From the IMG/VR virus record IMGVR_UViG_3300034068_001120, positions 38,842 to 102,841 of that record: a stretch of DNA of 64,000 bases; one strand, given 5' to 3'. The notes beneath the pieces are model-generated. The model was not told where the DNA came from, made no database searches, and saw only the letters and a list, made by a program, of their open reading frames with translations. Each line of letters begins with the position of its first letter. The first letter of the stretch is position 1. Position numbers and translations under genes: made by a program. The stretch comes from a virus. Shown one piece after another: positions 21,696-39,475 of this stretch.

Positions 21696-22973
21696 TTAGA
21701 TTGGACAGATTGTTGGAGAAACACTAGACGGAACTACGGCAGGAGCAGGAGATCCTTCGGCAGGACGCATTTGAGTATCGGCATCCACCTTGGTGTAGAA
21801 CTCCATAAAGGATTGCTTTGTATCCTCGTCGAAGCGAGACACACATCGTTCAATGGCAGTCATCTTGTCTCCGAAGATTGAGAAGCCAAACACAATGTCT
21901 CGCAGTCGGCGGGTCGTGATGATGTCAGACACAACATTCTGCTTGAATGACTTGCGAATAATGTCTGCCCAATTCACCAAGTTCACAATGAATGCAGAGT
22001 CATCGACTCCAACCGACTCGGCATACTTGGTGAGAATCTTGTTCTCGGTTGCAATGCCTGCATAATCCTGCTCGTAAGTAAAGCGGAAGCGTTCCAAGAA
22101 GGCTTCGTTCATTTGGTTTGTGCCAATGAATCTGCCGTCAGAACATCCCTTGCCTTTGGTGTTGGCAGTTGCGACAACGGTGAATCCTGCAACAGGTCTG
22201 ACAAACATTCCAATCTTTGGAATAAACTTTCCCTTGCCTTCCAAGATACTTTGAAGACACATAATGAGATGAGTTCCCAAGTCCACTTCGTCGAGAAGAA
22301 GAACAGCACCTCGTTGCATTGCAACAAGAGCAGGTCCAGGACAGAATACAGTTTCGCCATTCTGCAATCTGAATCCACCGATCAATTCATCTTCGTCGGT
22401 CTGTGCAGTAAGATTCACACGAATACATTCTCGATTCAGTTGAGCGCAAACTTGCTCAACCATTGTGGTCTTGCCATTACCTGACAAGCCTGTGATGAAG
22501 ATTGGACAGAACGAACCTGACTTCACAATCTTCTTGATCTCATTGTGATATCCCCACGGAATATAATTATCATCTTCAAGAGGAATAAAAGTATTGCCGA
22601 TATCTGTTTGTGATGCAGTCTTGATAAGACTTGCGGTTGTGGTGGTGGTGCTGTTGGTGGTGGTTGGTTTCATTGGTGTAATGGTTTCTGTTGTTGTGGG
22701 TGTGATGATGGCAGGAGTAGATACTTTGTTGCGGTTGCGAGTGTTTGGAATCACGGTGATGTCTGTGTCTTTGGCAAACAATTCAGGAACAGAATAAATT
22801 CCTCTGCCTTGCTTGCGATCTTCTGACATAATCCAAGCAGGAACGATTGAGTATCCTGCTTTGCAAGCAATGGTGTTGAGCAGACTGAACTCAAACATAT
22901 CGGTTGGTTGGGTGGGAAGGAATGGTCGGGCAGATTTCACGAAGAGGAATTGTGTGGTGGTGAGTGTGTGCAT
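21696..22973 (-). CDS. MoxR/CobS-like AAA+ ATPase
   Basis: Walker A GLSGNGKT, DELIGG, Walker B LLLDEVD, ATANTKG, NEAFLERF, TTRRL; own TTGACA/TATACT promoter and SD before MHTL. Confidence 0.93.
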   Translation of the reverse strand: MHTLTTTQFLFVKSARPFLPTQPTDMFEFSLLNTIACKAGYSIVPAWIMSEDRKQGRGIYSVPELFAKDTDITVIPNTRNRNKVSTPAIITPTTTETITPMKPTTTNSTTTTTASLIKTASQTDIGNTFIPLEDDNYIPWGYHNEIKKIVKSGSFCPIFITGLSGNGKTTMVEQVCAQLNRECIRVNLTAQTDEDELIGGFRLQNGETVFCPGPALVAMQRGAVLLLDEVDLGTHLIMCLQSILEGKGKFIPKIGMFVRPVAGFTVVATANTKGKGCSDGRFIGTNQMNEAFLERFRFTYEQDYAGIATENKILTKYAESVGVDDSAFIVNLVNWADIIRKSFKQNVVSDIITTRRLRDIVFGFSIFGDKMTAIERCVSRFDEDTKQSFMEFYTKVDADTQMRPAEGSPAPAVVPSSVSPTICPI

Positions 22974-23050
22974 TGTGTCCTTTGTTATATAAAGTATATG
23001 TCGTAAATGGGGGTTGTCAAATAATGCGGTCAATTTTTCAAAGATTTATT

Positions 23051-25207
23051 TTATGTTCCAAGAGTCTCGCCGATCAGGGTGGCAACCGATTTGAGTGATC
23101 CAATTGCGGATTGATTGGCAATGAATGCCTTCTGCAATTCTGTTTTGGACTTTGCCGTGTTCATATTCTTTGACACAGTTTCCAACATACCTTGAGCAGA
23201 ATAACCAATCTCTCCGTTCTGTTGACGAGCAATACGATTCTGATCAACAACGATTGCAGTATCAAATCCGTCAACTGCACATCGAACGAATCCATCTCGT
23301 TTCCAATTACAATTCGGAAGTTCTGTTGCGCCTTTGATTTGATGAGCAGGAGATCCTTTCGACCAATGCAACTTAATCCAATGAATTGCTGTTCCTGTTC
23401 GCTTTCGGATAATGTCACAGGCAATCCACACAGAAGTAGATTGAACTGTAAGAGTCTTGTCCAATTCTTCAATGTTATATTTAAGTCCTGTCACAGGATC
23501 AGAAATAATAATGTTGCTGTGTCTGTGTCGATTTGAACCATCGGAATTCTTTCTGTCACTTGGAAGAAAGAATCCATCACAAGAATCTCCGTCAGTCAAG
23601 ACAACCAAGTGAGTGGACTGAAGATTATTCTTTGCCTTGAACTCCTCAATAGTTTCCACAATTTCAATCAATGCCGAAGTGGTTGGAGTTCCACTCAAAT
23701 GATATTGATTATGCTTTGCACAATTATCAATGTCCTGCCAATTCCACAGAATACTCTTTCCCTTTTCATACTCGGCATTTGTCATCTTGGATGACAACCA
23801 ATTCAGAAGATGAATGGGATGCATTTTCACATTGTCCTTGTCGTATTTTCTATCCGTTCGACTCGACAAATCTTCTCCGCTTGAGTTGCTAAAATCATTT
23901 GGAGTCCAAGTATGATCAGAGAATGCAAAGACTTCAAATGGAATTCCACTTCGTCGGCAAAAGTCTGTGAGAATAATAAGTTGTCCAATGGTTGATCGCA
24001 TAATTCCCTGCATTGAACCCGACCAATCCAACAGAATAATAATGCCGTGATTCTTTCCTTTGGCAATCTTTACAGTTCTGCGAAAGACATCATCAGACCA
24101 ACGATAAGAATTCATTCTCAAAGTATCAAGCGCACCTGTCTTTGCAACAGAAGAACGATGAAACAAGTCCGCAGCTTGTTTTCTTGCAAAAGCCTGTGAC
24201 ATTGTTCTGCTTGCATCAGTATAATCTTTCACCTTGATTGGAGTGAGAACTTTCTGCAAATCCAAATTGTTTGGTTTGGATGCAATAATCAAATCAACAT
24301 CTTTCAGAATCATATTGTAAGTCACAATCACATTTGGATGCTTTGGTGGAAGTGTGCAAAGATAATGATTGTCCATTGGACTTGTTTTAGCAGTGCTTGC
24401 CATTTTTTCAATTGCCTGTTCCATCATCTTGTTTGTTGATGGAGTTGGCAATTGTTGCTGTTGGTGTTGCTGTTGTGGTTTCTGCTGTGAAACTTTAGAT
24501 TCTGACGATTCTTTGGAAGAAGATTCACCTTCTTCTCCTTCGCCTTCGCCTTCTCCTGCTTGTTGTTCTGCCGATGGATCATTCTCCATCTCCACAGGAT
24601 GATTCTGTCCCTGTGATTTGCAGAATTTAATAATTTTCACCGCAAGATCAACAACATTCTGAAATGATTGTGTTCGTTCCATCAGCGGAATAAACTGCGA
24701 TTCAGCGGAAGAAAAAGGAATCACAACATTAGAATGAATGCCCAATTTGAAGTGAAGATTCAACCGATCTGCAAAGCAAGCAGTCGGGAATGTGGAAGGC
24801 TTTCCAAAGAATTCCTGTGCAACAAAGTATTCATAAGCCAAGTAGAAATCTCGTTTCAAGCCTTGAAACTTGTTCTTGATAAGTCTTTCAATTCTTGCAT
24901 CTTCCACAATATTCAAATATGATTTGGCTTGTTCTGTGGAACATCCTGTTTGCTTTGCAATAAAATCCATTCCATCCACCCATTCTTTGGCAGGAGTCCA
25001 CAAAGCGTGTCCGACTTCGTGTCCAACCAACATATCATATGTTGATTCTGAAGCAGTCTCCCACAGAGGAAGAAAGAGTGTTCGTGTTTTAAGATTAAAC
25101 ATTGCAGTCGGAATCTTTTCGTGGAGAATTGTAATGTTCTCGGATGCGAGAAGTTTCGCAAGAGTAGACTTGTTTCGGACGATTGGTTGTTGTGGTGTTG
25201 TTGACAT
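23051..25207 (-). CDS. VWA-domain partner protein with N-terminal HExxH (CobT-like)
   Basis: GHEVGHALWT, NIVEDARIE, MIDAS DWSGSM, GTPT, VLTDG; leaderless start after TTGACT-N16-CATACT. Confidence 0.9.
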   Translation of the reverse strand: MSTTPQQPIVRNKSTLAKLLASENITILHEKIPTAMFNLKTRTLFLPLWETASESTYDMLVGHEVGHALWTPAKEWVDGMDFIAKQTGCSTEQAKSYLNIVEDARIERLIKNKFQGLKRDFYLAYEYFVAQEFFGKPSTFPTACFADRLNLHFKLGIHSNVVIPFSSAESQFIPLMERTQSFQNVVDLAVKIIKFCKSQGQNHPVEMENDPSAEQQAGEGEGEGEEGESSSKESSESKVSQQKPQQQHQQQQLPTPSTNKMMEQAIEKMASTAKTSPMDNHYLCTLPPKHPNVIVTYNMILKDVDLIIASKPNNLDLQKVLTPIKVKDYTDASRTMSQAFARKQAADLFHRSSVAKTGALDTLRMNSYRWSDDVFRRTVKIAKGKNHGIIILLDWSGSMQGIMRSTIGQLIILTDFCRRSGIPFEVFAFSDHTWTPNDFSNSSGEDLSSRTDRKYDKDNVKMHPIHLLNWLSSKMTNAEYEKGKSILWNWQDIDNCAKHNQYHLSGTPTTSALIEIVETIEEFKAKNNLQSTHLVVLTDGDSCDGFFLPSDRKNSDGSNRHRHSNIIISDPVTGLKYNIEELDKTLTVQSTSVWIACDIIRKRTGTAIHWIKLHWSKGSPAHQIKGATELPNCNWKRDGFVRCAVDGFDTAIVVDQNRIARQQNGEIGYSAQGMLETVSKNMNTAKSKTELQKAFIANQSAIGSLKSVATLIGETLGT

Positions 25208-25401
25208 ATGCAAAGTATGCCACCAATTCAAGCAAAGTCAAATAATGTGATCAATTTTCTAAAGATTTATTTCAAAGGTTATCGGACGCAGGACCCGATC
25301 AAATCCCGCCCAGTCCGATAACAGGCCGGGCTATGACGAACTATGACGAATTCGAACTATGACGGCAGGCAATAAAAAAACCCCCTTGCGGGGGTCCTGG
25401 A

Positions 25402-25602
25402 TCATGCGGTCTTCTCTATAAAGAAGTCCGTTTCATCATAATCCATTGTGACACCATCCTGCCAAGTAAGACCTGAAGTGTCTCCGTTGAATTGACATTC
25501 AACATCGTAGTGCGCTCCATTCTTCTTGACCAGATACATTGGATTTTTCCAACATACTGTGAGTTTGTTATCAACTGCGGTTTTGATTTCATCAAGTGTC
25601 AT
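25402..25602 (-). CDS. cassette gene, hypothetical (66 aa)
   Basis: MTLDEIKTAVD after AAAAGGA SD; ends at a terminator. Confidence 0.75.
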   Translation of the reverse strand: MTLDEIKTAVDNKLTVCWKNPMYLVKKNGAHYDVECQFNGDTSGLTWQDGVTMDYDETDFFIEKTA

Positions 25603-25768
25603 TGTAGTCCTTTTGTTGTGGTGATCTGTACCCTTGAAGTATACACCAAGAATCAACGAATGCAAATAATCAGCACAATATTTGAAAGATTTTATTATCG
25701 GACACGGCGGATTCAAACTATGACGGCAGAAAACAAAAAAACCCTTTCCCGAAGGAAAGGGTCTCTGA

Positions 25769-26125
25769 TCAAAACTCGTCGCTGTCAGGATAATCGAATC
25801 CGAAATCGCCTTCGCTTTCGGTGATTTCCTCAAGAATGCGAGATTCGCACTCTCGTTCAATCTGATCTGCGAGATGTTCGCAGATTTCCGTGATTGCGGG
25901 ATTGCTTTTGTCGAACGACCATTCGGCAATCACTTCTCCGTCCTCATTGAACTGCATCCACGAGTCGATTTGAACACCTTGAATGGCAAATTCGTGTCCT
26001 TTTTCTGTTCCGAACTCGTGATCGAAACTTGTATCAACCTTTTCATAAAGAATTGTGCAAATTGCTGTGTAAAATGACTCTCCGACTTCAATTTCTTCTG
26101 CTTCAAATGTAATTTCTGATTTCAT
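25769..26125 (-). CDS. highly acidic protein, candidate DNA mimic
   Basis: 118 aa from MKSEITF; hand count 33 D/E vs 6 K/R. Confidence 0.6.
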   Translation of the reverse strand: MKSEITFEAEEIEVGESFYTAICTILYEKVDTSFDHEFGTEKGHEFAIQGVQIDSWMQFNEDGEVIAEWSFDKSNPAITEICEHLADQIERECESRILEEITESEGDFGFDYPDSDEF

Positions 26126-26144
26126 TTTCGTTTTCTTTCTTGGG

Positions 26145-26540
26145 TTAGTTGTTGTTTTTGCCGTCGAGTTCAATATCTTCGAGAATTTGAGCAATCATTG
26201 TGTCTGCCACATCGGAAAGAGGTGCTCGTTCCTCGTTCTGATCGTGAATTCCTGCATTTCTTGCAAGAACAAGACGAAGCATTCGCAAAGCCGAGATGGT
26301 TTGATCAAATTCCACCATTGCAAGTTTGAATTTCGTGATATCCTTGAGCATATCAGGAATTCGCTCTGAATCATCTTCAGTTTGAAACTCTCGAAGTGAT
26401 TCTTCAAGATCTTTCAGCGATTGAGTAACAGGGTTTGAGAGAATGGCATTGAATGATCCGCACAATTGGCTTCCGATCTGGTCGATGATTTCGACAAGAC
26501 GGCGGGGGTTGAGATCGAGATTGTTAGTGTTGTTGGACAT
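26145..26540 (-). CDS. cassette gene, helical hypothetical, leaderless
   Basis: TATACT-CTTATT-ATG. Confidence 0.7.
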   Translation of the reverse strand: MSNNTNNLDLNPRRLVEIIDQIGSQLCGSFNAILSNPVTQSLKDLEESLREFQTEDDSERIPDMLKDITKFKLAMVEFDQTISALRMLRLVLARNAGIHDQNEERAPLSDVADTMIAQILEDIELDGKNNN

Positions 26541-26772
26541 AATAAGAGTATACACCGAGAATTGAACAATGCAAATTATGTGGTCGATTTTCCAAAGATT
26601 TTATTATCGGACTCTGAGGGCTATGACGAACTATGACGGCAGGCAATAAAAAAAGACTGGGTTCGCACCCAGTCCAAAGTCCTGCGGACTTGTTATTTGT
26701 TATTTTCCGAATGTGGAGAGGTAACAGGGTCGGCGGGGAAACGCTCCACCGCCGACCCTCCAACCACAACGG

Positions 26773-27072
26773 TCAGACTGCAATACCTCGCTTGACGAGA
26801 TCTTTCGACATCGCCACAAGAACTGCGTGGTTTTCTGTGAGAGCCAGAATCAACGCATCGTGCGTCTTGCTCTCGTCAATGGCTTCTTGAGCCTGACGAG
26901 TAAATGATTCTGCCTTTGCCACGAACTTGTCTTTGTTGAATTGCGCCTTCGCAATTCCCATCGCCGCATCGTCGATTGATTGTGCGAGAGGAGATCGGCG
27001 TTCTTGACGAACACTTCCGTCTTTGTTGAGTTTGCTTGATTGGGTCGTACCCGATGTTGTGTTGTTGGACAT
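26773..27072 (-). CDS. cassette gene, coiled-coil hypothetical, leaderless
   Basis: TATACT-CTGTAT-ATG. Confidence 0.7.
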   Translation of the reverse strand: MSNNTTSGTTQSSKLNKDGSVRQERRSPLAQSIDDAAMGIAKAQFNKDKFVAKAESFTRQAQEAIDESKTHDALILALTENHAVLVAMSKDLVKRGIAV

Positions 27073-27234
27073 ATACAGAGTATACACCAAGAATTAAACA
27101 ATGCAAATTATAGGATCAATTTTCTAAAGATTATTATTATCGGACTCTACGGGCTATGACGAACTATGACGGCAAGGCAAAAAAAAAACTTCCCCGAAGG
27201 GAAGTTCCGACGCTGTTGCGTCTGCCCCGAAGGG

Positions 27235-27639
27235 TTATGCGATTGCGATATCCAATTCCTTGAAGGTCTGCATTCCTTCACATTGCGTCATCGTCGACTT
27301 TCCGATGATGCCCATAATTCCTTGAACGGAATCGTTCATGGACTTTCGGACTTCCTTGCGTTCTGAATCCGACATTGCCATTGCTTCCTCGGCGATGGCA
27401 ACCAATGCCGAACGCTGAAATCCTGCACGCTGTGCAAGGATGGACAGAAGTGTCCACGGACAGGCTGACTGCGGAACAGACTTCTCGAATGCTTCGCCTC
27501 GACTGTACGAGAAGTCTACGCAGAAGGTGACCGTTCCTGCCAATTCTGATCCTGAAGGAATCGTATACAGTTCCTTGACTGCACTCTTGATTGCTGTTAC
27601 GAACTCTGGGGATTGAACGATGGTGGTTGTTGTTGTCAT
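27235..27639 (-). CDS. cassette gene, hypothetical, leaderless
   Basis: TATACT-CTGTAT-ATG; ends just before a terminator. Confidence 0.72.
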   Translation of the reverse strand: MTTTTTIVQSPEFVTAIKSAVKELYTIPSGSELAGTVTFCVDFSYSRGEAFEKSVPQSACPWTLLSILAQRAGFQRSALVAIAEEAMAMSDSERKEVRKSMNDSVQGIMGIIGKSTMTQCEGMQTFKELDIAIA

Positions 27640-27831
27640 ATACAGAGTATACTTCCAAAATCAACCTTGTCAAATTATATGGCAAAGAATTAAGAATTAT
27701 TATTATCGGACTCTGGGGCTATGACGAACTATGACGGATTCGAACTATGACGGCGAACCGAAAAAAAAATTTCTGGAATAAAAACCCCTCGGCACGATGC
27801 CGAGGGGCTATGCAACCAACTGACGATTGTG

Positions 27832-28695
27832 TTAGACTCGCACTGCGAATCCGTTTGCGGTCGCATATGCCATCGATTCATCGTAGGCTCGATGCGATGT
27901 CGGTCCCTTCCAAGACAATCCGACTACCGAATTCTTCGGATCAAGAAAACGCAGATCGGTAGCCGTTCCATCGATTACGGTATATCCGTTCCAAGTCTTC
28001 GGCAATTCGGTAGCCGATTCAATACCGAACACTACGGCAACATTGTAGCCTGATTCAAGGATACTCAACGCATCGGATTCATTATCCTCGCTTCGTGAGA
28101 ATGTAAGATGATAATTCGATGGAGTTTTTCCGACTCTCGATGCGATTTTCGTATAATCGTAAAACTGAACGGTAGAGTATCGTTCGAACAATTCGCTCCA
28201 TACCTTTTCCCAAAGAATGTCACTGAATGCGTTCATACGAACCGATGGCGTAACTCCACGCTTGGCGCAACGCTTGACGAACGATGCTATCTCTCTATCA
28301 ATCGCTTGTAGTGCCATTAGCGCAGTCGATCCTCCTCCAAACAATTCTCTAGTTCTTGCAATTCTTGCGGAGCGTACCGAATTGAGCACGCTTGGATTAT
28401 TAGCGCATCCAACTCCCAATACTGAATGTCCCGCATTGATACCTACGCATCCCTGCCTACAGAATCCAGCCTTTGGGCATATATCGATACCGCTTGTGTT
28501 AGCAGGGGAAAGACTCAATGAGAGCGTAGCGTGCCCTTGCGCCGAACCTAGGAAAAGTTTCGGATTACTATCTTCCTTCGACATTATCGACCTCTTGCGA
28601 GTACCGATAGGCGCACCTTTGCGCTCGTATTCTGCGATGGATTCTCGCAGATTAGAGTAGGATAGAACAGAGGATGGTAGTTGTGTTAGTTGCAT
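27832..28695 (-). CDS. GP88-family protein, leaderless
   Basis: ICPKAGFCRQGC, RMNAFSDI.W, FYDYTK, NYHLTFSRSE, NVAVVF, VIDG...DLRFLDP...VVGL..KG; TATAAT-ATGAGT-ATG. Confidence 0.82.
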   Translation of the reverse strand: MQLTQLPSSVLSYSNLRESIAEYERKGAPIGTRKRSIMSKEDSNPKLFLGSAQGHATLSLSLSPANTSGIDICPKAGFCRQGCVGINAGHSVLGVGCANNPSVLNSVRSARIARTRELFGGGSTALMALQAIDREIASFVKRCAKRGVTPSVRMNAFSDILWEKVWSELFERYSTVQFYDYTKIASRVGKTPSNYHLTFSRSEDNESDALSILESGYNVAVVFGIESATELPKTWNGYTVIDGTATDLRFLDPKNSVVGLSWKGPTSHRAYDESMAYATANGFAVRV

Positions 28696-28841
28696 ACTCA
28701 TATTATACATCGTAAATCGATGATGTCAAATAAAGGGTACGATTATTTGAATATTTTTTATTATCGGACGCTGGTCATAGTTCGCTAGTCATAGTACCGC
28801 AGATCGACTCCCGCCACCACCACAAAAACTATGACGAATAC

Positions 28842-28919
28842 AAAAAAAGAGGATGCCTCTGCGGTGGCATCCTCCTTGTCGCTCGCGTGTGCGACGGTTT
28901 ATTTGTTTTCCTTCCTGAC
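28842..28919 (-). ncRNA. probable ~75-nt small RNA filling a whole cassette
   Basis: Perfect TTGACA-N16-TATACT promoter and a strong terminator enclose ~75 nt with no meaningful ORF; four AGGA motifs and a GUCGC/GCGAC hairpin. Confidence 0.65.
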
Positions 28920-29045
28920 AACTAGAGTATACAACAGATTCGGACAATGTCAAATAAAAGGTTAAAGAATTATAATATTGTATTATCGGACTCTCGTGAA
29001 CTATGACGAAACCAAAAAGAAAAGACCCCCTTGCGGGGGTCCTGG

Positions 29046-29318
29046 TCAGGAGTCTCTCTTTGCGACTCCTGCTTTGAATCCTTCCCTCCAAGCCTCATCG
29101 AGTGCATCTGCACTCGTTGGGCGATTGTTCACCAACCAATTCCTGCAATCTTGCAGTTCGGCTTCCAAATCCGAGATTTGAAATTGATAATCCTTCAACT
29201 GCTCGAGCGATTCACGAGTTTGAATTTGTTGCGCCAATTGGGATCTCTCCCATCGCAAGACATCCAACCGTTGTTTTTTCGATTGAAATAGTATGGTCAT
29301 TTGTTGTAATACGGTCAT
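29046..29318 (-). CDS. cassette gene, coiled-coil hypothetical
   Basis: ATG after structured leader and AAAGGA SD. Confidence 0.7.
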   Translation of the reverse strand: MTVLQQMTILFQSKKQRLDVLRWERSQLAQQIQTRESLEQLKDYQFQISDLEAELQDCRNWLVNNRPTSADALDEAWREGFKAGVAKRDS

Positions 29319-29389
29319 TCTAGTTCCTTTGTGTCCCGCAGGGACAGATGCAATCGTAAGGGATTGAAACATTCAATCCTCATCGACAC
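29319..29389 (-). promoter_or_regulatory. structured 5' leader, copy A
   Basis: GUCGAUGAGGAUUGAAUGUUUCAAUCCCUUACGAU...UGUCCCUGCGGGACA-SD. Confidence 0.8.
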
Positions 29390-29523
29390 CTACAATATAC
29401 AACGGATTTGGGCAATGTCAAATAAAAGGGTAAAGAATTCTAATATTGTATTATCGGTCAAAGGGGGCTATAACAAACTATGACGAAACCAAAAAGAAAA
29501 GACCCCCTTGCGGGGGTCCTGAA

Positions 29524-29871
29524 TCACTTGGCGTAGATGTCTGCGCCAGATCGAATCCCCCATCCTCTCCTCGCCACTGTTTGGTGGCGAGTGGTGGTTC
29601 TCGAGTACTTGTCATTGGGAATCACGCATCTTGGGCACTCTCCGTCAAGATAGACCCACATAATTGGTGTTCCGTAACTATAAACAACATATTGAATGTT
29701 GTCTGTGGAAAGGAACAATCGAGCCATTTCTGGGGAAAGTCGACCCGTCCCTCTACCCACTCGAACAGTACTCGATCCGTACTCTCCGAATGAGAGTGAT
29801 CCAGTGTGAGTCTTTCCGTTTTCAAATTTGCTGATTGCCACAAACGCATTATGAAGTGAGATATTAGCCAT
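29524..29871 (-). CDS. cassette gene, YSYGTPI...KYSxTTxRHQ phage early protein
   Basis: Motif pattern recalled from phage early hypotheticals; SD AAAGGA. Confidence 0.75.
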   Translation of the reverse strand: MANISLHNAFVAISKFENGKTHTGSLSFGEYGSSTVRVGRGTGRLSPEMARLFLSTDNIQYVVYSYGTPIMWVYLDGECPRCVIPNDKYSRTTTRHQTVARRGWGIRSGADIYAK

Positions 29872-29939
29872 TCTAGTTCCTTTGACCCGCAGGGTCAGGT
29901 GCATCATAAGGGATTGAAACATTCAATCCTCATTGACAA
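29872..29939 (-). promoter_or_regulatory. structured 5' leader, copy B
   Basis: Same fold as copy A, with GUCA/UGAU and UGACCC/GGGUCA compensatory changes. Confidence 0.8.
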
Positions 29940-30075
29940 CCACAATATACTACCGATTTCGCCGATGTCAAATAAAGAGGTCGATTTTTCAAAGAATATT
30001 ATTATCGGTCAAATAGGGCTATGACGAACTATGACGAAACCAAAAAGAAAAGACCCCCTTGCGGGGGTCCTGGGG

Positions 30076-30474
30076 TTAATCGAAGTGTGTCCCGCAGTGA
30101 CCGCAATGCTCACTTTGACGGGTGCACCCGCAGTGGGGGCACTCGTACCAACCGTCGCCGTACTCTCGTCGAGGCTCGACCTCGACCTCGGACTCCTCCA
30201 TCACTAATGATGGAGACTCGATGATGCCCCTTTCTCGAAGCATCCGCTCGAGCACGATGAACTCGTCCATCACCCTCGACTTGATGGCTGCTGAAAAAAC
30301 ACTTTTTTCCCGATCATCCAGTGCCTCCACGAGATTCGTGGGGGCGGTCATTTGAATGACCGCAGAGAGTCTCATCATTTGGATGTGGATCGGCAATTTG
30401 CCGATCCACTCAACTGCGCCGACTGCATTGAGATGCGCCCTCAATGCCATACCTTCAGGGGTTGATTCATTCAT
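30076..30474 (-). CDS. cassette gene with C-terminal Zn ribbon
   Basis: WYECPHCG...HCGHCG. Confidence 0.7.
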   Translation of the reverse strand: MNESTPEGMALRAHLNAVGAVEWIGKLPIHIQMMRLSAVIQMTAPTNLVEALDDREKSVFSAAIKSRVMDEFIVLERMLRERGIIESPSLVMEESEVEVEPRREYGDGWYECPHCGCTRQSEHCGHCGTHFD

Positions 30475-30547
30475 CGTAAGATCCAATCCGACCCGCAGGG
30501 TCAGGTGCATCGTAGGCAACTTGAAACATTCAAGCCCGCCTCGACAC
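30475..30547 (-). promoter_or_regulatory. structured 5' leader, copy C
   Basis: GUCGAGGCGGGCUUGAAUGUUUCAAGUUGCCUACGAU variant. Confidence 0.8.
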
Positions 30548-30707
30548 CAACAATATACACTCAATTTCGCCGATGTCAAATAAAAGGGTAAAGAATTACA
30601 AGATTCTTTGTTATCGGACTCTAGCGTCATAGTTCGCTGCAACGACCCAGCCTCCACCAAACTATGACGAACACAAAAAAGAAAAGACCCCTTTCGGGGT
30701 CCTGATA

Positions 30708-30899
30708 TCAAGCGTACCACTTCTTTACTTTCTTGAACTCTTCGACAAGATCCATCTCGCCGAGATGGATCAATCGAGCCAACAGAATATGATCCGCCAT
30801 TCTGTGTGCTTGCTCGATGTCGCCCTCACAGGAGGAGCGAGAGATTTGGCGCATCTGCGCCAATCCTGTTTCTTTCGTCATTTCTTGAATTTCGTCCAT
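30708..30899 (-). CDS. cassette gene, small hypothetical
   Basis: 63 aa after leader copy D; D.E.AH..AD...KWYA pattern. Confidence 0.72.
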   Translation of the reverse strand: MDEIQEMTKETGLAQMRQISRSSCEGDIEQAHRMADHILLARLIHLGEMDLVEEFKKVKKWYA

Positions 30900-30967
30900 T
30901 CTAATTCCTTTGTCCCGCAGGGACATTTGCATCGTAAGGGATTGAAACATTCAATCCTCATCGACAC
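30900..30967 (-). promoter_or_regulatory. structured 5' leader, copy D
   Basis: Near-identical to copy A. Confidence 0.8.
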
Positions 30968-31103
30968 CCACAATATACACCAAGAATCGCCGATGTCAAA
31001 TAAAAGGGTAAAGAATTCCAAGATTCTTTGTTATCGGTCAAATAGGGCTATGACGAACTATGACGAACACAAAAAAGAAAAGACCCCTTTCGGGGTCCTG
31101 GGA

Positions 31104-31514
31104 TCAGGACTTGACCCCGACTTGCGCCCAATCGGAATTGGGTGGGTATACCCACCCGCAGTGGCGGAAACTCGAGGTCTTCGTTGTTCTTCCGTCAGGA
31201 AGAACCTCCTCCACAGAGACTCGCTCTGTGAAAGAGAAGCAAACTTCCCATCCTTCTGCCTCGAGCAGGGATTGGAGCGGTCCCATCAAATACGGGGCTC
31301 CGCCGATCATGACGAAGTCAAAATCTTCGCAATCCGCATTCATCCGAAGCAGTCGGACGATGCTTTCGCATCGCGTTGCGATTTCGATGCGTGAAGGGGG
31401 GGTGGCGAATGTTAACAATTCGCACAATAACTTGCGCCCCTCGGGGAGAAAATCTACCACTCCATCCTCAATTTGTTCCTTTGTGGCGAGATGTTGGGTG
31501 AGGTTCGGTATCAT
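31104..31514 (-). CDS. Csx20-like CARF-related protein, candidate cyclic oligoadenylate ring nuclease
   Basis: H..T.EQ.ED, LP, PP, VMIGG, TERVSVE...DG...K.S.FRH pattern resembles Csx20 (from memory, not searched). Confidence 0.55.
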   Translation of the reverse strand: MIPNLTQHLATKEQIEDGVVDFLPEGRKLLCELLTFATPPSRIEIATRCESIVRLLRMNADCEDFDFVMIGGAPYLMGPLQSLLEAEGWEVCFSFTERVSVEEVLPDGRTTKTSSFRHCGWVYPPNSDWAQVGVKS

Positions 31515-31585
31515 AAAGACTCCTTTTGACCCGCAGGGTCATTTGCATCGTAGGCAACTTGAAACATTCAAGCCCGCCTCGACAC
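31515..31585 (-). promoter_or_regulatory. structured 5' leader, copy E
   Basis: Copy C-type first hairpin, UGACCC-UGC-GGGUCA, AAGGAG SD. Confidence 0.8.
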
Positions 31586-31689
31586 CAACAATATACATCA
31601 AGAATTGACGATGTCAAATAAAAGGGTAAAGAATTCAAAGATTCTTTGTTATCGGCCAAAATGGGCTATGACGAACTATGACGAATACA

Positions 31690-31905
31690 AAAAGAAACCA
31701 TTCTCTCCGTGATCGTTTCGGAGAGAATGGTTGTCAAGTGTCGGCGGTCCTGAGTCGATGCGAGCGTGCGGGTGGAAGGCAGGGGAGGGGTGTCAAACGC
31801 AGGTGGGGTGCTTCCGTGATCAAACTTGGCACTTCAAGCGTGTTGATTTTCTGCAAATCCAAGCCGAACGAGGCATCAAGCGAGCCAAACCGAATCACTT
31901 GATTC
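31690..31905 (-). other. first cassette transcript: ncRNA or ~55-aa peptide
   Basis: Promoter at 31912-39 and terminator at ~31690-31732; only a GTG ORF (31734..31907) with no SD; C-rich tract. Confidence 0.45.
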
Positions 31906-32211
31906 ACCTACAGTATACACCGAAAAACGCCGATGTCAAGTAAAGAGCCTGATTATTTCAAAGAATATTATTATCGGACCTCACCCGCACCTATCGGAGT
32001 ACAGTGTTATCGGCCCCTTCCCCACCCAGCCCTAGTGGGTCTAGCAGATCGAGCAATCCCGTGGGGAGGAAATTAAAATATTCACCCCCCGTCAATTCTG
32101 TACAACATTTATCGAACCTGCTTTTGAAAATTTTTTTTGCGTAAAAATTTCACGCCAATATCCTTTTCAAATATTCTTCATATACTCTTTTTCCAAGAAA
32201 TAATCAGTTAG

Positions 32212-37540: not shown

Positions 37541-39475
37541 ATGTCCCAATCCCGTGATCTACTTCCTACTCAATTTCAAACATTCATTCACTTATCAAGA
37601 TATTCCAGATGGTTGCACGAAGAAAATCGTAGAGAATCATGGACTGAAACTGTTAGTCGATATTTTGATTTCTTTGAAGCGCATTTAAAAGAAAACACAA
37701 AGTTCTCTTTGACCAAGGCTCTTCGAGCCGAATTGGAATCGGCTATTTTAAATCTTGAAGTTATGCCATCCATGCGCTGTTTGATGACAGCAGGAGAAGC
37801 ACTCACCAAATCAAATATTGCAGGATACAATTGTGCATACACTACAGTGAATCGTGTGCGAGCATTTGATGAGATTCTTTATGTTTTGCTGAATGGTACA
37901 GGAGTTGGATTTAGTATAGAACGCCAATATGTGGAACGACTTCCGACAATTGCAGAAGAGTTTTCTCAAAGCAATACTACTATCATTGTTGAAGATTCAA
38001 AAGGTGGATGGGCAAAGTCTTACAAAGAATTGATTTCACTGCTCATTGGTGGACAAATTCCAAAGTGGGATTTGAGTAAACTTCGTCCAGCGGGTGCAAG
38101 ACTAAAAACATTTGGTGGTCGTGCAAGTGGTCCTGCTCCACTTGATGAACTATTTCGTTTCACAATGGATTCTTTTAAACGAGCAGCAGGACGAAAATTA
38201 ACTTCAATTGAGTGTCATGATATTGTTTGCAAAATTGCAGAAGTAGTTGTGGTTGGTGGAGTTCGACGATCTGCACTGATTTCGCTGTCCAATCTCACAG
38301 ACGAAAAGATGCGAGATGCCAAGACAGGTGCATGGTGGAATGAGCATCCACAACGAGCACTTTCAAATAATTCTATTGCATATAAAGAAAAACCAGAGAT
38401 GGGCGTATTCATGGAAGAATGGATTTCTCTTTATAAATCCAAAAGCGGAGAACGAGGTATCTTCAATCGTGAGGCTGCAAAGAAAACGGTTGAAAAACTT
38501 GGAGATCGTCGTGATCCAAATTATGATTGGGGATGCAATCCATGTTCGGAAATTTTACTGAGAGATCGTGAGTTTTGCAATCTTTCTGAAGTAGTTGTTC
38601 GTGCAGAAGATACTGAAGAAACTCTAATGAGAAAGATTCGTATTGCTACAATTCTTGGAACATTCCAAGCATCTCTTACAAATTTTCCATATCTTTCAAG
38701 TGAATGGAAAAAGAATTGTGAAGAAGAAGCCTTGCTTGGAGTTTCTCTTACAGGAATTCTTGACAATAAGATATTGAGTAAAGTTTCTGTTGATACAAAG
38801 GCTCTTCTTACTCGTCTTCGTGAATCTGCAATTCTAGTAAACAAAGAGTTTGCAAAGCGGTTAGGCATCAATCCAGCAGCAGCAATTACTTGCACAAAAC
38901 CCAGCGGAACAGTTTCTACATTGGTAGATTCGGCAAGTGGTATTCATCCCCGACATGCCGAATATTATATTCGTACTGTTCGTGCAGATCGCAAAGATCC
39001 GTTGTGTCAACTAATGATTGATAAAGGATTTCCACACGAACAGTGTGTCACAAAGCCAGATTCTGTTACAGTATTTTCTTTTCCGATGCGAGCAATTGGA
39101 TCGGTTACTAGAAAAGATGTAAGTGCAATTGAGCATTTAGAATTGTGGTTAATGTATCAGCAATATTGGACAGAACACAAACCATCCATTACTGTGAGTG
39201 TTCGAGAACACGAATGGCTTGAGGTAGGTGCTTGGGTCTATAAAAACTTTGATGAAATTTCCGGAATTAGTTTTCTTCCATTTTCGGATCACACCTATCG
39301 TCAGGCTCCATTTCAGGATTGCACAAAGGAAGAATATGAAGCATTGGTCTCTCGCATTCCTGTGAATGTGGATTGGAGTGAACTTCAAAAGTACGAGAAA
39401 ACAGACAATACCACGGGTTCTCAAGAATTTGCTTGTAGTGGTGGATCATGCGAAATTGTGGATATTGTAAAATAA
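37541..39475 (+). CDS. nrdJ: class II (adenosylcobalamin) ribonucleotide reductase
   Basis: MPSMR, YNCAY, GGVRRSA, CNPCSEI, FCNLSE, KPSGT, C-terminal ACSGGSCE. Confidence 0.95.
   Translation: MSQSRDLLPTQFQTFIHLSRYSRWLHEENRRESWTETVSRYFDFFEAHLKENTKFSLTKALRAELESAILNLEVMPSMRCLMTAGEALTKSNIAGYNCAYTTVNRVRAFDEILYVLLNGTGVGFSIERQYVERLPTIAEEFSQSNTTIIVEDSKGGWAKSYKELISLLIGGQIPKWDLSKLRPAGARLKTFGGRASGPAPLDELFRFTMDSFKRAAGRKLTSIECHDIVCKIAEVVVVGGVRRSALISLSNLTDEKMRDAKTGAWWNEHPQRALSNNSIAYKEKPEMGVFMEEWISLYKSKSGERGIFNREAAKKTVEKLGDRRDPNYDWGCNPCSEILLRDREFCNLSEVVVRAEDTEETLMRKIRIATILGTFQASLTNFPYLSSEWKKNCEEEALLGVSLTGILDNKILSKVSVDTKALLTRLRESAILVNKEFAKRLGINPAAAITCTKPSGTVSTLVDSASGIHPRHAEYYIRTVRADRKDPLCQLMIDKGFPHEQCVTKPDSVTVFSFPMRAIGSVTRKDVSAIEHLELWLMYQQYWTEHKPSITVSVREHEWLEVGAWVYKNFDEISGISFLPFSDHTYRQAPFQDCTKEEYEALVSRIPVNVDWSELQKYEKTDNTTGSQEFACSGGSCEIVDIVK

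Follow-up and report, generated by a model that had tools for sequence, protein, structure and literature searches.

The Locus and Its Cassette

The window analyzed here, i.e., the whole stretch of DNA under study, comprises 64,000 nt and corresponds to positions 38,842 to 102,841 of the IMG/VR record IMGVR_UViG_3300034068_001120. On its minus strand, an open reading frame of 136 codons starts with ATG and ends with a stop codon (31104–31514, stop included). Its translation, P0001, is a protein of 136 aa assigned to the Csx20/MJ1673 family. Two long plus-strand ORFs overlap the gene and were dismissed as antisense shadows, because the conserved product is the one encoded by the minus strand. 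With a GC content of 53.5% and a GC3 of 60%, as compared with a GC3 of about 24% in the core genes, the P0001 gene is foreign in base composition and is therefore regarded as an acquired cargo gene.

The parent record measures 102.8 kb and is estimated to be 57% complete. It is a virus record that carries tail-fibre, baseplate, and virion genes, which agrees with the original prediction that the protein is encoded by a phage. In addition, it contains a B12-type ribonucleotide reductase, whose nearest relatives are scattered, a CobS-like ATPase, and four tRNAs. A megablast search of the phage collection with this DNA gave no match. As for Cas10, no Csm1 or Cmr2 match was found in the record. 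At 21696–25231 on the minus strand, the CobS-like AAA ATPase, which has 445 aa and matches the PHROG 'porphyrin biosynthesis' at E 1.4e-99, adjoins a protein of 726 aa that matches VWA/CoxE weakly, and the two neighbours look like the CobS/CobT-like pair of large phages.

The P0001 gene is embedded in a minus-strand cassette in which an inverted repeat, a promoter, a leader, an AAGGAG with the ATG, and a terminator follow one another. The perfect inverted repeat AAAGAAT-N6-ATTCTTT (31628–31647; repeat family D1) is found a short distance upstream of the −35 box in a sigma-70-type promoter, TTGACA-16 nt-TATATT (31590–31617, minus strand), which matches the consensus at 11 of 12 positions. The 5′ leader of about 70 nt (31515–31585, minus strand), delimited from the sequence, forms two hairpins and then presents AAGGAG about 7 nt ahead of the ATG; its minimum free energy is −29.1 kcal/mol (z −4.06 vs shuffles). 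At the other end, the terminator scan placed an intrinsic terminator 5 nt past the stop codon (31070–31099, minus strand), composed of the GC hairpin AGGACCCCGAAAGGGGTCTT and a T-run. The proposal that the gene is strongly promoted is supported by the near-consensus promoter, together with the Shine–Dalgarno sequence and the gene's own terminator. As the promoter is of the host type, the gene is probably expressed soon after infection.

This cassette is one of at least seven monocistronic cassettes that form a minus-strand array at 25200–32000. Each of them has a near-consensus promoter (TTGACA-16-TATA(T/C)T) as well as a terminator with a GC hairpin, and direct repeats of the CTATGACGAA type are found where the cassettes adjoin. 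Eight near-consensus promoters, including that of P0001, fall within 28.5–32.3 kb, and promoter sites number 23 where 6.0 were expected. Several parts of the cassette are reused. The two-hairpin leader of about 70 nt recurs ahead of unrelated genes near 29319, 29872, 30475, and 30900 (repeat families D6 and D7), and the terminator element also closes neighbouring cassettes (repeat family D5). The inverted repeat AAAGAAT-N6-ATTCTTT has exactly three copies in the window (30590–30609, 31010–31029, and 31628–31647), each just upstream of the −35 box in one of three consecutive cassettes, which encode a 133-aa zinc-ribbon protein, a 62-aa protein, and the Csx20-like protein. It may possibly serve these cassettes as a common operator or activator site.

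The cargo genes of the array are mostly orphans with a GC content higher than that of the core genes. The cassette neighbours of P0001 gave no informative family match, and no HTH or RHH match of the kind expected for an Aca-type regulator was found in the neighbouring cargo proteins with Pfam, PHROGs, or PADLOC. Another cassette of the array (27832–28710, minus strand) encodes a 292-aa protein of the GP88 family (PF17338, E 3.7e-33; phrog_1617), to which no function is assigned.

Family Membership

The likeness of P0001 to Csx20 was put forward in the original prediction and has now been computed with NF040559, two PADLOC Csx20 models, and PF27247. The NCBIfam model NF040559 (CAS_Csx20, equivalog; 124 positions) matches with E 7.5e-7 and 29.6 bits, and the match is colinear from end to end, with residues 5–120 of P0001 aligned on profile positions 4–120. 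The PADLOC Csx20 models PDLC01384 and PDLC01659 match weakly (E 6e-4 and 1e-3, respectively). All 30 closest database homologues also match NF040559, each at a score below the curated cut-off; the best E among them is 1.4e-8. P0001 and its 29 relatives carry a precomputed assignment to Pfam PF27247.1, a family which the ESM Atlas names 'MJ1673', and the nearest Atlas clusters are 97–100% PF27247.

Since its 29.6 bits fall short of the curated cut-off of 70 bits, P0001 is no NF040559 equivalog. Judged by these profile matches, it belongs to the MJ1673/Csx20 family in the broad sense, and the same shortfall places it in a divergent, mostly viral clade instead of among the equivalogs of the CRISPR-linked Csx20. 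In the control genomes, NF040559 scored above its cut-off only in Methanocaldococcus jannaschii, where we take MJ1673 to lie within the type III cas cluster. No match above the cut-off was found in the 401 genomes from the phylum of carrier G001 or in the 301 genomes from the phylum of carrier G404.

The Csx20 models are the sole family matches found for P0001, and they cover its full length. A Pfam scan at E ≤ 10 gave no match, since the Pfam copy that was scanned did not contain PF27247. The PHROGs scan returned no family, and a sequence-profile search of the PDB gave a chance match alone (E 1.2). The absence of any Pfam match at E ≤ 10 extends to DUF1874, in line with the claim that P0001 belongs to a family different from AcrIII-1.

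The motifs on which the likeness was initially based, namely NLTQHLATKEQIED, LPE, TPP, VMIGG, and SFTERVSVEEVLPDGRTTKTSSFRH, are all found in the translation. In alignments of 30 and of 90 homologues they coincide with invariant or near-invariant columns, and for this reason they are not regarded as chance resemblances. Over 90 divergent members, N4, T6, F36, G72, M77, L80, R98, G108, and K112 are invariant, while Q7, H8, Q14, D107, F116, and H118 reach a conservation of at least 90%. P0001 keeps every one of these residues.

Distribution

When 1.84 billion cluster representatives were searched with a profile of the family, 2883 clusters (at 50% identity) were retrieved with E ≤ 1e-3. With 1061 of these clusters at E ≤ 1e-30 and at least 173 IMG/VR contigs carrying relatives of P0001, viral family members are far more numerous in metagenomes than the four to five published cases from cultured phages would indicate. 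Among 185,579 prokaryote species represented by one genome each, 33 relatives were found. The nearest ESM Atlas clusters are 79–82% viral, and the P0001 clade is mostly viral or mobile. Named phages in which relatives occur are the Rhodothermus phage RM378 (43% identity, E 2e-17) and the Pasteurella phage Pm86, whose relative is partial. Closer homologues, with 92% and 85% identity, have intact reading frames.

On plasmids, tblastn identified relatives in Aromatoleum, Azotobacter, and Caminibacter, all annotated as 'hypothetical protein'; the surroundings of the Caminibacter copy are not a cas locus. Large enterobacterial plasmids (Citrobacter, Klebsiella, Enterobacter) carry a weak relative, likewise 'hypothetical', with about 30% identity over residues 4–100 and E 0.01.

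Some family members from other metagenomes (P0031–P0048) are longer, with 260–670 aa, and consist of two tandem Csx20-like domains or contain additional unannotated regions. P0048 is a fusion with DUF4116 repeats, and apart from DUF4116 no Pfam match was found in the fusion partners of the long members.

Predicted Structure

An AlphaFold2 model of P0001 built from a 30-row alignment (pLDDT 90, pTM 0.80) shows an alpha/beta fold with a long C-terminal beta hairpin. Foldseek found no PDB entry at E ≤ 1e-3. With VIA-align the best Z was 6.8, with none at Z ≥ 8, and half-domains of aspartate racemase tied for the top scores with cyclic-oligonucleotide sensors. The latter include SAVED-CHAT (8tl0; Z 6.4, rmsd 4.1, 110 aligned residues), CalpL (9eyi; Z 6.3, rmsd 3.6, 110 aligned), Cap5 (7rwk; Z 6.2, rmsd 3.2, 103 aligned), and VC1899 (1xmx; Z 5.8, rmsd 3.5, 104 aligned), followed by Cdn1 (Z 5.7), Cam1 (5.5), Can2 (5.3), and Card1 (4.5). 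The ring nucleases scored 5.5 (viral SAVED 9r8s) and 4.1 (Crn1-type Sis0455, 7z55). Altogether, CARF/SAVED cyclic-oligonucleotide sensors or ring nucleases account for about one third of the top 50 structural neighbours (Z 4.1–6.4). The neighbours of the model are suggestive of a CARF/SAVED-like fold without being decisive.

P0001 is also predicted to form a homodimer, with a score of 0.84 as against 0.01 for the best control; among proteins of solved structure, 20 of 30 that were solved as pairs attain the mark used for this prediction, as does 1 of 23 that were solved as single chains. Contact agreement between the dimer runs was at least 81% and the pLDDT of the partner at least 85. The contacts of the predicted interface involve the C-terminal strand together with GGAPYLMGPL, a conserved segment. 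The existence of relatives with two copies in tandem fits a dimeric unit for this family.

Genomic Context and Co-occurrence with Cas10

No conserved neighbour of the P0001 homologues was found in 112 loci. Their surroundings are ordinary phage or mobile-element genes, and no neighbour cluster is present in more than 10 of the 112 loci; those that recur have common phage functions, e.g., terminase, SNF2 helicase, and primase.

Matches to Csm1 or Cmr2 above the curated cut-off occur in 9 of the 29 cellular carrier genomes. In the four of these nine in which linkage was compared (G001, G002, G003, and G404), cas10 is unlinked to the Csx20-like copy, being located on a different contig or at a distance of about 1 Mb. 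Among the Pseudomonadota carriers, Cas10 occurs in 5 of 8, compared with 34 of 300 genomes drawn evenly from the phylum (Fisher one-sided p 0.001), and in 4 of 6 (p 0.003) when three Cardiobacteriaceae genomes are counted once; these are few, partly related genomes, many of them incomplete. The direction of the enrichment fits a mobile gene whose product would act in trans against type III systems. Small genomes (0.6–1.6 Mb) are seen in about a dozen carriers, mostly Patescibacteria, and Cas10 was above the cut-off in none of them, which leaves room for a broader range of targets.

Two of the cellular copies, in Cardiobacterium valvarum (L108) and Rhodoferax antarcticus (L088), have a mobile-element-like setting, with cas10 elsewhere in the same genomes. 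Their neighbours comprise an IS605 OrfB/TnpB gene, an AbiEii-like AAA ATPase, a DUF6094 methyltransferase, and an Api92-like domain.

Relation to Known Ring Nucleases

The assignment of Csx20 to the cA4 ring nucleases, which the original prediction took as given, agrees with experiment: Hoikkala et al. reported in 2025 that Csx20 degrades cA4 in vitro (PMC12409355). According to the same study, type III loci encode Csx20 more often than any other stand-alone ring nuclease (78 loci), and csx20 was found in four phage genomes, or five in the preprint. P0001 resembles this family in its profile matches (three HMMs and Pfam), in the colinear full-length alignment, in its size (136 aa vs a model of 124 positions), and in a predicted, possibly CARF-like fold and a predicted homodimer. 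It differs from the Csx20 of type III loci in its score (29.6 vs 70 bits), its location in a phage cassette, and a record with no cas10.

In a 2026 paper, csx20-aca14 operons were described in mobile elements and proposed to be a counter-defence co-option (PMC13551039). The idea of a phage Csx20 is thus less new than was implied at the outset, as it is already in print (PMC12409355, PMC13551039). The csx20 homologues reported from phages and prophages represent the same concept as P0001, i.e., a cas-derived ring nuclease in mobile elements as a candidate anti-CRISPR. Unlike the csx20-aca14 operons, which have an RHH/Aca14 partner, the P0001 gene is monocistronic, lies instead in an array of promoter–leader–terminator cassettes, and has a different inverted repeat by its promoter. 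A literature search found no bench test of any viral copy of Csx20.

The role proposed for P0001 is like that of the established viral ring nuclease AcrIII-1/Crn2 (DUF1874), namely that of a virus-encoded dimeric enzyme that destroys cA4. The P0001 model may have a Rossmann-like CARF/SAVED core in common with Crn1 (Sso2081, Sis0455) and with 9r8s, the SAVED ring nuclease of a virus (PMC12751052); there is no detectable sequence similarity to either, and the Z scores lie in a range where perhaps only the arrangement is common.

Proposed Function and Alternative Explanations

The computed basis for an interpretation of P0001 consists of its family membership, the conservation of N4, T6, Q7, H8, R98, D107, K112, and H118 as polar residues, a fold modelled with confidence, the prediction of a dimer, the anatomy of the cassette, and the foreign base composition. 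With moderate confidence, we propose that it is a homodimeric cA4 ring nuclease turned against type III CRISPR. The gene would be transcribed alone from its host-type (sigma-70) promoter, probably soon after infection, and its product would be a small homodimer that belongs to the Csx20/MJ1673 family and folds in a CARF-like manner. This dimer would bind the cA4 made by the Cas10 of the host's type III CRISPR system and cut it to linear products. Upon the loss of cA4, effectors that depend on it, e.g., Csx1 or Can2, would not be activated, and the phage would escape. On the sequence evidence, the role of an anti-type III ring nuclease is supported as a candidate.

The fold, the dimer, and the conserved pocket residues would equally serve binding alone, and P0001 might act as a sponge that holds cA4 or another cyclic oligoadenylate (cOA) tightly with no turnover. 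The strong promoter suits a protein needed in stoichiometric amounts, and a sister candidate, Csx15, initially displayed no cleavage and has been discussed as a possible sponge (PMC12409355). However, Csx20 is a true enzyme as tested in that work, and invariant T, H, R, and K residues, of a type that other ring nucleases employ, are kept across 90 diverse members, so that we regard a sponge as quite unlikely. We give the same low probability to a protein that degrades other defence signals, e.g., the cA3 of CBASS or type III, and is thus broadly anti-signalling instead of specifically directed at cA4. At 10 µM, a high enzyme concentration, Csx20 degraded cA3 fully (PMC12409355), and the SAVED domains of CBASS, such as those of Cap5 and Cap14, are among the best structural neighbours of P0001. 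The small Patescibacteria-dominated carriers with no Cas10 above the cut-off and the relatives on enterobacterial plasmids point in the same direction, but the plasmid matches are weak (E 0.01). Moreover, Cas10 is enriched among carrier genomes, and the characterized members and co-occurring effectors in the literature are all cA4-specific.

A reuse of the CARF-like fold outside defence signalling, for instance in a protein that binds nucleotides and regulates the metabolism of the phage or its host, appears very unlikely. It would be in keeping with a score under the NF040559 cut-off, with the tie in Z between the sensors and racemase-type Rossmann-like domains, and with adjoining cargo genes that have no known function. 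Nevertheless, no family models other than those of Csx20 were found to match P0001, and these do so over its full length; the conserved polar residues suit a small-ligand site, and a mobile, single-gene, neighbour-free spread is typical of counter-defence genes. The foreign base composition suggests a recent acquisition, and the gene might then be a silent or decaying passenger with no current role. An intact frame with all family-invariant residues in place, the equally intact homologues at 92% and 85% identity, and a complete set of promoter, Shine–Dalgarno sequence, and terminator make this extremely improbable.

If P0001 is active as a cA4 ring nuclease, it would join the natural inhibitors of signalling by type III CRISPR. 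Given the number of its viral relatives in metagenomes, Csx20-type enzymes would then constitute, beside AcrIII-1, a major phage route to the silencing of cOA signalling. Both the enzyme family and the hypothesis of its co-option by phages are published, and P0001 opens no new question in this respect. It is of value as a clean and well-conserved subject for a bench test, and so is the architecture of its cassette. A wider proposal, which we consider unlikely, is that the viral clade is the main body of the Csx20/MJ1673 family and not a few borrowed cas genes, that its substrates go beyond cA4 (e.g., to the cA3 of CBASS or type III), and that the P0001 gene is a unit of a co-regulated counter-defence array. 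The last part of this proposal comes from the three consecutive cassettes, which share the operator-like inverted repeat and a structured leader.
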